From Coleofasciculus chthonoplastes F2-STO-03 (GTDB taxonomy: Bacteria; Cyanobacteriota; Cyanobacteriia; Cyanobacteriales; Coleofasciculaceae): a stretch of 61,602 nucleotides of DNA. Location: contig JAVJWO010000214.1 in assembly GCA_040222015.1 (NCBI GenBank), positions 1-61,602 on the forward strand. The letters run 5' to 3'. Position 1 is the first letter of the stretch. Every line of letters begins with the position of its first letter. Below the pieces are notes generated by a model. It ran no database searches and was not told the origin of the DNA. It worked only from the letters and a program-made list of their open reading frames with translations. Positions 499 through 2,889 of this stretch are shown in pieces. The position numbers and the translations under genes are program-made.

Positions 499-2889
499 TT
501 ACTCATTAGCCCAATCAACCTCAGATTTCTCTCTTTCCTCTCTATCTCTACTACTCGTCATCCCATAATCTTCGTCCCAGAATCCCCGTGCAGTCTGCTC
601 TTTCCTCTCCTTATCTTTCGTTATATCCTTATCTTTCGTTATATCCTCATCTTTCCTTATATATTGACCATCGTTCGCATCTTTCGCTACACAATAAATA
701 GTTGATATGGTGTCTACTATTCCTTGATCGTTTTCGCATTTGCATTTTTTCAACTCTCCAAGACCCAGCTTCGACGCCTCTGAAATCACTTGGTCAATGA
801 CTTTTAGCACCTCTTCGCGTAAACCTGCAGGGAACAGCGGCTTGCTATGTTCTGTCACCTTGTAGTTCCAGTGGCTCGGCGGGTTTTCGTGCGGGTCGTA
901 GTCGTATCCCCGGCGTTTTGCGTCGAGTGAACATAACAAGCAGTTTTGTGATTGTGCTTTGCCTACTGTATGGCCTCCCGTAGCCTTAGTCGCTTTTGCT
1001 GGCGAATGTTGTGTGTTCGACTTGTCGTATATTTGATTGAGGGCTGCTTCGCAGTGGACTGATCTGCCTCCCCCTTCTATACTTGGTTTTTCCTGATTAA
1101 TGTATTCACTACTTTTGTTGTATTTTTTGATGCCCCCCTGGTTGGACATCACAACGTATTCCCCATTCTTTAGTTTCTTTATTCCTATGTATGGATCTTC
1201 TCCTTTTACTCCTTTTATTTCATCGGCGTAGTGTTGGACACATATTTGTTCCCCCTTGTCTAACTCATTTACCCCTTGATTTACTTTTCCTAACTCACCC
1301 TTTTCACTCGTTGTTTCACTCGCTTCTGCTGTTAAGTATAGCGAAATCATCTTTGTGATTTCCTTAACTTGAGTCAACCCTTTCTGCCCCCATTGCACCG
1401 TCGGCTGGCTCTCCTTCTTTTTTCTTTCTGACTGTTGAACTCTTTTCTCCTTTGTGGCATTCTCCTGCGACGCTTTCATTGAAGTTATTAATTGTTGGAA
1501 TGTATTGTTATCTACCCCATCATCAAGGTTTTGGGTCGGAATATCGCACGGCTTACTACCAAACTTAGGCTTAGGCCAAATTTTCTTTACGTTTGCCTTT
1601 TTTTTCCCTTTTTTCCCTGTATGCGTACTAATTACTTTGACCAGCCCGTTCTGCCATAAATATATCGTTCCCTTTTTCGCCTGTTCGTTTTGACCCAAGA
1701 GTGTCCTTTGTACTACCTTCGTCCCTGGGTTCAGCACCAAACCCTTAAATTGCTCAGCCTTAGACGATTTGAAATTCTCCTGCTCTTCCTCCTTCTGCAA
1801 ACCTTTATTTTCTCTCTGCACCCCTCCCCCCTTCTGCTGCACAACATGAGTCAACTCATGCGCCAACAACTCCTGTCCCCCCCGACTCCCAGGCTCATAC
1901 GCCCCCTGCCGAAAGAACACATCCTGCCCCGTCGTAAACGCCTTCGCCTGAATCGCCTGATTCAACTCATCCGCCTGGGTATCCCTATGCACCCGCACCC
2001 CACTAAAATCCGCCCCAAACCCCCGCTCCATCGGTTCTCTCACCGACTCATCCAAGGGTTGTCCACTCCCCCTTTTCCCCTGTATCGACGCCTCCAACTC
2101 TGCCGACGCCTCTTGGGTTTCCCCCTCACTCTTCACCGCTCGATTAACCCTCACCCCTTCTATCGGGGACTTCCTTACCCCCGTCACCCCAACTCCTGCT
2201 TCAACCTTTCCCCCACTCCCCGCCTCTGACTTCAGTCTCACCTCATCCTCATCCCCCATCTCCTCACGCTGCACCGTCTCTGGTATCGGGGAATGAATCT
2301 TATCCACCACCTGACGCGCTACCCTATCCGCTTCCTGTTCATACACATCATTGGGTTCCCCGATAGTCAGCTTCGCTTGGATGGGTAGACTTATCTCAGT
2401 TTCGGCTAACTCCTTCTCTTCGCCTCCCGCTTCCTCCTTTCTCCCCTCTCCTTGCAGGAGAGGGGTTGGGGGAGAGGTTCCCTCCTCTTGCTTCTGCACA
2501 GGCGTCGGTTCCAAATTGCCAAACAGCCGCCGCCGAATCTTATTCCGTACTTCCCGACTGGGAACCCCATACCCCTGGGATTGACTCAATCCAGTCTCCG
2601 CCTTCCCCTGAATCTCCCCACTCGCCGCTTCCTCTGACACCTGCGTCGGGTTCTCCACCTCTTTGGCTTCCGTTGGCGCTGTTTCCGCCTTTGCACCCGT
2701 CATCTCCGGGATATCACCAAACAGACTGCGGCGAATTTTATCCCGTTGCGCCTTACTGGGAAGGTTTCCGACTAACTCACTGCCCTTCTTTGCCTCGGTT
2801 TTGGTTTGGATGTGAGAGGGCGGGAAAAAAGAAGACTTACGGGGAGTGGGTGTCCAGGATGAGGATTTGGACTGGCGGTCATATACCAT
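499..2889 (-). CDS. DUF4157 (eCIS core domain) protein with variable C-terminal domain bearing a deaminase-like HxE...CxxC motif
   Basis: IQAKLTIGEPNDVYEQEADRVA, GQPLD...MERGFGADFSGVRVH, AFTTGQDVFF, LLAHELTHVVQQ motifs; after VVQR an AT-rich domain with VHCEAAL and NCLLC; probable start MVYDRQ at 2889. Confidence 0.88.
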   Translation of the reverse strand: MVYDRQSKSSSWTPTPRKSSFFPPSHIQTKTEAKKGSELVGNLPSKAQRDKIRRSLFGDIPEMTGAKAETAPTEAKEVENPTQVSEEAASGEIQGKAETGLSQSQGYGVPSREVRNKIRRRLFGNLEPTPVQKQEEGTSPPTPLLQGEGRKEEAGGEEKELAETEISLPIQAKLTIGEPNDVYEQEADRVARQVVDKIHSPIPETVQREEMGDEDEVRLKSEAGSGGKVEAGVGVTGVRKSPIEGVRVNRAVKSEGETQEASAELEASIQGKRGSGQPLDESVREPMERGFGADFSGVRVHRDTQADELNQAIQAKAFTTGQDVFFRQGAYEPGSRGGQELLAHELTHVVQQKGGGVQRENKGLQKEEEQENFKSSKAEQFKGLVLNPGTKVVQRTLLGQNEQAKKGTIYLWQNGLVKVISTHTGKKGKKKANVKKIWPKPKFGSKPCDIPTQNLDDGVDNNTFQQLITSMKASQENATKEKRVQQSERKKKESQPTVQWGQKGLTQVKEITKMISLYLTAEASETTSEKGELGKVNQGVNELDKGEQICVQHYADEIKGVKGEDPYIGIKKLKNGEYVVMSNQGGIKKYNKSSEYINQEKPSIEGGGRSVHCEAALNQIYDKSNTQHSPAKATKATGGHTVGKAQSQNCLLCSLDAKRRGYDYDPHENPPSHWNYKVTEHSKPLFPAGLREEVLKVIDQVISEASKLGLGELKKCKCENDQGIVDTISTIYCVAKDANDGQYIRKDEDITKDKDITKDKERKEQTARGFWDEDYGMTSSRDREEREKSEVDWANE

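Follow-up and report, generated by a model that had tools for sequence, protein, structure and literature searches.

The gene analyzed here lies on the minus strand at positions 499–2889 of contig JAVJWO010000214.1 from the cyanobacterium Coleofasciculus chthonoplastes F2-STO-03 (61,602 nt; this whole stretch is called the window). Our reading, to which we assign a probability of about 0.62, is that it encodes a contractile injection system (CIS) cargo carrier with an exchangeable tail, and that this tail is likely a Zn-dependent nucleic-acid deaminase toxin of an unnamed and very rare family. By every feature testable here, the gene belongs to the DUF4157 cargo class, and the earlier note on this DNA, which had named a DUF4157 carrier of extracellular CIS (eCIS), is borne out in this respect: PF13699, with its HExxH motif, lies N-terminal to the variable domain and is the single Pfam domain in the protein. 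The gene and its carrier part are as follows:
499..2889, minus strand: whole cargo gene, intact, 796 aa; the open frame extends to a TTG at 3093, with the ATG at 2889 as the likely start
2059..2889, minus strand: N-terminal low-complexity region, aa 1–277 (68% P/E/S/Q/K/G/A/R), predicted disordered loading sequence
1825..2058, minus strand: eCIS core (DUF4157, PF13699; E 1e-34, 119 bits, cut-off 22), with an intact HELTH at 1860–1846

Although the minus-strand frame is open over 499–3093, the ATG at 2889 is the likely start because AGAGG lies 7 nt upstream and the ortholog in a related genome (G003) has the same MVYD..SSSWTPTP stretch.

The evidence for an enzymatic tail rests on a small set of conserved residues. 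Tail positions are counted from after the VVQR motif, over the last 401 aa (P0001). The motifs from which the earlier note had proposed a deaminase effector lie where it had placed them (VVQR at 1716–1705, H-C-E at 1056–1048, and C-L-L-C at 942–931, or 945–931 with the preceding Asn), and exactly 35 residues separate Glu219 from Cys255. Taken alone, the bare motif is weak evidence: it is only modestly above chance, with HxE-20..60-CxxC arising in 176 of 20,000 shuffles of the tail and occurring in 22 of 2,754 genome open reading frames (ORFs) of at least 300 aa. We take it as real because it is conserved across the family members; none of the five differs at H217, C218, E219, C255, or C258. 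The core (aa 147–292), over which the five members are 42–55% identical, has 44 invariant positions of 146, and the flanking helices have 5 of 46 and 5 of 53. All three invariant Cys (of eight), both invariant His (of eight), and Glu219 fall within this core. The parts of the tail, from its N-terminal end, are as follows:
1513..1686, minus strand: predicted SH3-type barrel (Tudor/chromo-barrel/KOW-like), basic, aa 7–64
1411..1506, minus strand: long linker helix predicted in the structure model, aa 67–98
1315..1404, minus strand: first helix of a four-helix bundle predicted by the models to enclose the core, aa 101–130
829..1266, minus strand: deaminase-like core by predicted structure, aa 147–292
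1048..1056, minus strand: H217-C218-E219, with the His as predicted Zn ligand and the Glu as predicted catalytic residue, invariant in 5/5, at the N-terminus of a predicted helix
931..942, minus strand: C255-x-x-C258, predicted Zn ligands, invariant in 5/5, in the first turn of predicted helix 255–264
673..828, minus strand: C-terminal helices predicted to complete the bundle, aa 293–344 (pLDDT 80–94)
502..669, minus strand: charged, unconserved tail end, predicted disordered, aa 346–401 (pLDDT <50; 0/56 positions invariant)

The deaminase superfamily core consists of helix 1, a hairpin of strands 1 and 2, helix 2, strand 3, helix 3, and strand 4, with a 2134 sheet. In the core model, helix 150–163, strands 172–177 and 183–187, a hairpin insert, and helix 218–227 are followed by strand 237–240, a loop insert, and helix 255–264; strand 4 is only a bridge. 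The residues of the Zn-dependent deaminase motif, besides being invariant, fit in position in both structure models. Structural matches to generic four-helix bundles cover tail aa 100–349, and those covering the core best were 3oj6, 2z3g, 8x6y, and 1ux1 (99–109 residues, 7–10% identity), of blasticidin S deaminase and cytidine deaminase; these differ from the cargo in carrying PCxxCR and in being small-molecule enzymes of housekeeping metabolism that are not secreted. Foldseek against the PDB and BFVD gave no deaminase among the matches listed, and DddA, SsdA, TadA, and APOBEC chains were absent among the structural matches listed, an absence that does not exclude them. When the core was aligned by hhalign with home-made alignments of TadA (30 sequences), the SsdA family (19), and OTT_1508 (3), the probability was below 1% and not above that of shuffles, but known deaminase families compared with each other also failed (0.3–5.9%), so this comparison had no power. 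Thus, of the proposed deaminase effector, the conserved Zn-type motif and its position in both models have stood, whereas no named deaminase family was matched.

The family itself is very small. A word search of sequences gave one relative, and an exhaustive search of 1.84 billion representatives gave five matches, of which four were real (P0003–P0006); the other, P0007, was dropped as a repeat artifact. Profile searches, one of which scored the best 8,000 candidates, returned the same four proteins and no others. Scans of viral, genome, and metagenome contigs confirmed none of 126, 18, 145, 12, and 145 pattern matches, no match to the tail was found in plasmids or phages, and none of 60 genomes of relatives contained it. 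Among 400 other genomes of the order, one matched at E 0.009 and was discarded, having three stops. A 156-base metagenome contig (run X3) covers 904–1059 with 17 differences. Every homolog is a singleton cluster without a name. P0003 carries PF13699; P0004 and P0005 have low-complexity N-termini that end in VAQR and IVQR, match no profile, and look like degenerate CIS carriers; P0006 starts after the barrel. For the tail, Pfam, NCBIfam, and PADLOC held no relevant named family (one weak PADLOC match lay outside the tail), and of two sequence searches of the PDB, one returned nothing and the other two chance-level matches. No description of the family was found in the literature, where text searching cannot recover an unnamed sequence family. 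The tail therefore belongs to a very rare, unnamed, five-member family with a barrel-helix-bundle frame, in no named deaminase family tested; in none of the family libraries searched did the enzyme branch or its predicted Tudor-like accessory barrel find a match.

The tail is exchangeable, as comparison of the C-termini of homologous DUF4157 genes confirmed. The boundary is marked by one further feature:
1810..1836, no strand: junction where cassettes are exchanged, at the eCIS core's 3' end, from the identity break and metagenome loose ends

DNA identity to the G003 ortholog ends at 1817 and to that in G006 at 1816, and contigs from all four metagenomes examined have loose ends near 1835. Exchange thus takes place where the eCIS core ends and not at VVQR, where the earlier note had drawn the junction; the exchangeable tail is real, but the junction, at about 1816, lies some 110 bases upstream of that boundary. 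Sister species carry different tails in this slot. At the G003 locus, the divergent AAA gene (91%) and the carrier (92.5% DNA identity) are kept, and the tail differs, with a weak Endonuclea_NS_2 match (E 0.0056, below the cut-off). The G003 carrier (L100:8046-10757, G003:C16) is followed by repeats, a PIN/AbrB-like pair, and, by eye, a REP-type transposase-like ORF; no immunity gene follows it. The G006 carrier (L017:449-2014, G006:C1225) is 91% identical up to 1816 and has a third tail type, which is hydrophobic, helical, and without a Pfam match, and could be membrane-active. Carrier matches occurred in all nine genomes of the genus, with 3–15 per genome. Among the tails at 31 carrier loci, of which 10 were cut by the locus edge, [HC]xE..CxxC was found only in the cargo tail of this gene. 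Three carrier pairs from different species (L029/L034, L036/L043, and L022/L028) had identical last 60 residues as read, suggesting recent cassette exchange between species of the genus. The carrier at L021 (G002:C45) has a 134-aa tail that, by eye, we take to resemble a barnase/RNase Sa-type ribonuclease.

The step in composition at the tail, in GC and in Lys (13.5% in the tail, 7.3% in the carrier), which the earlier note had pointed out, is real. However, because the tail (43% GC) is near the genome mean (45%) and the carrier is at 56%, it is the carrier that is compositionally unusual, and AT richness of the tail was dropped as a sign of foreignness.

Deaminase toxins linked to metallopeptidase domains of the Photorhabdus virulence cassette (PVC) type have already been described in cyanobacteria and Chloroflexi, without immunity genes (PMC3239186), and two known proteins resemble the product of the cargo gene. 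EAT11 of Amycolatopsis nigrescens (AmyniDRAFT_7433), with DUF4157 and XOO_2897-deam, is reported as toxic to E. coli and yeast (PMC8213781). It likewise has DUF4157 at the N-terminus and a deaminase at the C-terminus, but is 364 aa long with an XOO_2897-deam domain, whereas the cargo tail has no Pfam match and has a barrel and bundle around its core. Alr3311 of Anabaena PCC 7120, for which OTT_1508_deam is listed (PMC8213781), is also a cyanobacterial DUF4157 protein with a deaminase domain, and a study that names DUF4157 in it detected it by mass spectrometry in purified thylakoid-anchored CIS (PMC8894136). However, Alr3311 lies beside a CIS cluster and matches PF14441, whereas the cargo gene does not match PF14441 and is an orphan with an AAA gene as its neighbor. 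Having a tail without annotation is usual in this class, since 983 of 1,130 predicted DUF4157 toxins are given as having no other annotated domain (PMC11297309).

Among named clades, OTT_1508 resembles the cargo tail in HxE, in CxxC without Pro, and apparently in a His in the loop after helix 3; PVC delivery in cyanobacteria and Chloroflexi and the lack of an immunity gene are likewise described for that clade (PMC3239186). In contrast to OTT_1508, the cargo tail has no GxxK before CxxC (SQN precedes it in 5/5), no aromatic-x-x-Pro, and no PF14441 match (0/5 members); His272 is invariant, but WNY is not followed by Pro, whereas the OTT_1508 loop has His and aromatic-x-x-Pro. A phylum search with PF14441 gave only three sub-threshold fragments, and a genome search gave no match on this genome (G000). 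Cyanobacterial RHS proteins with a Tc-type repeat that end in OTT_1508-like deaminase domains were also seen (L010:1426-3177 and L011:1-1755). Among the C-terminal-hairpin toxin deaminases (YwqJ, MafB19, MsddA-like, SsdA/BURPS668_1122, and DddA/SCP1.201), the tail is like YwqJ (PF14431) in the inserts before helix 2 and before CxxC and in truncation after helix 3, which are weak, shared features of the model, but has SVHCE, SHHCE, AQHCE, or ARHCE instead of Gx[CH]xE and no invariant His in the stretch inserted after strand 2 and before helix 2. It resembles MafB19 (PF14437) in the invariant N188 (ending strand 2) and G266 (start of strand 4), but has SQNC and AKATK rather than +xxCxxC and the strand-3 Val, and no Pfam match. 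Unlike DddA/SCP1.201, it has no Lys/Gln at E+2. None of the five members matched the profiles of MsddA-like (PF24174), SsdA (PF14424), DddA/SCP1.201 (PF14428), or XOO_2897 (PF14440) at E up to 10; Atlas similarity to these families was only 0.79–0.86. The earlier note had taken the missing Pro before CxxC as a sign of an unnamed clade; this argument for novelty falls because known members also lack Pro, namely 10 of the 20 loci with PF14424 and all three PF14441 matches. Elsewhere in the genome, a short PF14424 (SsdA-family) deaminase frame (113 aa; G000:C20:45449-45631, L049) stands alone, and other cyanobacteria carry close copies of it.

It is unlikely, although worth weighing, that the deaminase fold and Zn site are real and the enzyme, rather than mutating polynucleotides, uses free nucleosides or nucleotides or a cofactor as substrate, in the manner of cytidine deaminase (CDA) or blasticidin S deaminase, depleting target pools or acting in the producer. 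Among solved deaminases, only small-molecule enzymes of the CDA family aligned; when 175 enzymes spanning 13 families were screened, nearly all of the DNA activity came from five of the families (10.1101/2023.06.29.547047); and a Streptomyces CIS cargo with a deaminase-like domain is reported to have altered sporulation of its producer (PMC13277306). However, the CDA matches may simply mirror the small truncated core, the basic barrel and helix are conserved along with the core, and the Atlas neighbors are mostly toxin deaminases. A distinctly improbable alternative is that the metal site is structural (His217/Cys218/Cys255/Cys258, or with His272) and the toxin's activity resides elsewhere, e.g., at AKATK, SQN, or WNY, in a nuclease or nucleic-acid-modifying enzyme on a deaminase-like scaffold. 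Cys218, as a fourth invariant ligand candidate, and His272 would fit this; AKATK, SQN, and H.N.P..WNY are strongly conserved, and the fold scores are weak. Against this, Glu219 is invariant exactly at the position of the deaminase catalytic acid, and Cys218 lies between His and Glu, where the residue is small in known families (A, G, S, or T). We consider it very unlikely that the tail is instead a thiol enzyme (a papain-like peptidase, deamidase, or transglutaminase) whose catalytic Cys would be Cys255 of N-C or Cys218, together with His272 and Asp270. Although N254-C255, H272, D270, and C218 are invariant, and Tox-PL1, a papain-like type, is defined by NC, H, and D, with papain-like toxins described as riding PVC carriers (PMC3482391), the expected arrangement, with His and Asp after NC and on a beta sheet, was not found: His272 is just 17 residues past Cys255, and in both models only helices follow NC, leaving no sheet for a triad. 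Upstream of HCE there is no invariant His, no papain-like chain was among the structural matches listed, and Glu219 and Cys258 would be left unexplained. There is little chance that the cassette is silent or non-delivered, with an orphan carrier left unloaded and the tail as stored variation, since, although the cargo gene lies outside a CIS operon and the tail is absent from all 60 relatives and 400 other genomes of the order, its frame and motifs are intact, the carrier–ATPase pair is kept in G003, and all nine genus genomes have carriers.

For a nucleic-acid deaminase delivered by a CIS, the following mechanism can be proposed. The disordered N-terminus and the adjacent AAA ATPase would load the protein into the CIS tube, by analogy with AlgoCIS, where a disordered N-terminal domain is reported as required for loading, DUF4157 as dispensable, and an AAA+ protein as the proposed loading mediator (10.64898/2026.05.27.728243); we infer from the same analogy that aa 1–277 are the loading sequence. 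The protein would be threaded into the tube and delivered, and the tail would refold in the target. His217, Cys255, and Cys258 would hold a Zn that activates water, and hydrolytic deamination of the base would use Glu219 as proton shuttle, in line with established deaminase Zn chemistry (PMC3239186), while the basic SH3-type barrel and long helix may grip nucleic acid. Related toxin families are described as editing cytosine in DNA and some in RNA (10.1101/2023.06.29.547047). If the tail is a deaminase, we rank cytosine in DNA first, at somewhat under even odds; RNA (C-to-U or A-to-I) comes second, at around one chance in three, and other substrates last. The OTT_1508 neighborhood does not fix the substrate, because fungal OTT_1508-like enzymes are described as performing A-to-I editing in mRNA (PMC12754623). 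For cyanobacterial CIS, there has been speculation about a part in forming ghost cells or an action on grazers (PMC8894136).

The genome has five eCIS-core genes with different ends and encodes two CIS clusters on other contigs than the cargo gene, which itself lies outside them. The cluster on C23 has a sheath, two tubes, a CIS tube, VgrG-like, gp25, spike tip, and Pvc16 proteins, and that on C85 has a sheath, tubes, and Pvc16; 10 of 12 scanned proteins match a CIS family. On C23, one carrier ORF ends directly behind the eCIS core (G000:C23:32254-32997); it lies close to two AAA-like genes and the CIS cluster and may be a tail-less carrier or adaptor. The neighbors of the cargo gene are as follows:
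3140..5272, plus strand: divergent gene for an ATPase with a winged-helix domain (WHD) and an AAA domain, likely cargo loader (PF00004, E 1.5e-26; PF22977, E 3.8e-15)
1..498, no strand: downstream non-coding repeats to the contig end, with short dispersed repeats at 134–450

The WHD+AAA gene, in the same place in G003 and 91% identical, is presumably of the Afp15/Pvc15 type, judging from its architecture. In the 498 bases between the cargo gene and the contig end, no immunity gene was seen, as is usual for PVC/eCIS deaminases, and the minus-strand frames are broken by stops except for a 27-codon frame running off the contig end. A 91-aa ORF at 293–568 was rejected by eye as an immunity gene, being on the opposite strand and overlapping the gene end and repeats. 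The repeats at 134–450 comprise a 22-bp tandem repeat and longer dispersed repeats, which also occur on many contigs and near the G003 locus; GCGATCGC repeats occur in the genome at 0.78 per kb, which we read, together with the gene content, as pointing to a cyanobacterial host. Elsewhere in the window are a dynamin-like/50S GTPase-family gene overlapping a patatin and DUF3376 gene (13856–19007, plus strand), a 1938-aa protein with a two-partner secretion (TPS) domain and a CHAT domain (38937–44753, minus strand), and a 421-aa ORF that, by eye, we take to resemble an IS605-family TnpB (11169–12434, minus strand).

The tail makes a clean candidate: its five-member family is intact and falls outside Pfam, NCBIfam, and PADLOC, the cassette boundary is exact, and the putative catalytic residues are named. 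Of the toxin deaminases, DddA, SsdA, and MsddA have become tools for editing and methylome work, and a new branch often comes with specificities of its own; as a counterweight, most families in the 175-enzyme screen had little DNA activity. A bolder and improbable extension is that this is a new toxin-deaminase branch with its own targeting, in which the barrel on its long helix would dock on a defined nucleic acid or the chromatin of a eukaryotic grazer and the bundle would gate activity, so that no immunity protein is needed. If true, nature would have supplied an editor that is both guided and self-inhibited, with a novel preference in sequence or substrate, carried on an eCIS cassette shared among distant bacteria. 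The barrel-helix-bundle frame around a truncated core may bear on the way in which eCIS toxins leave their producer unharmed although immunity genes are lacking.
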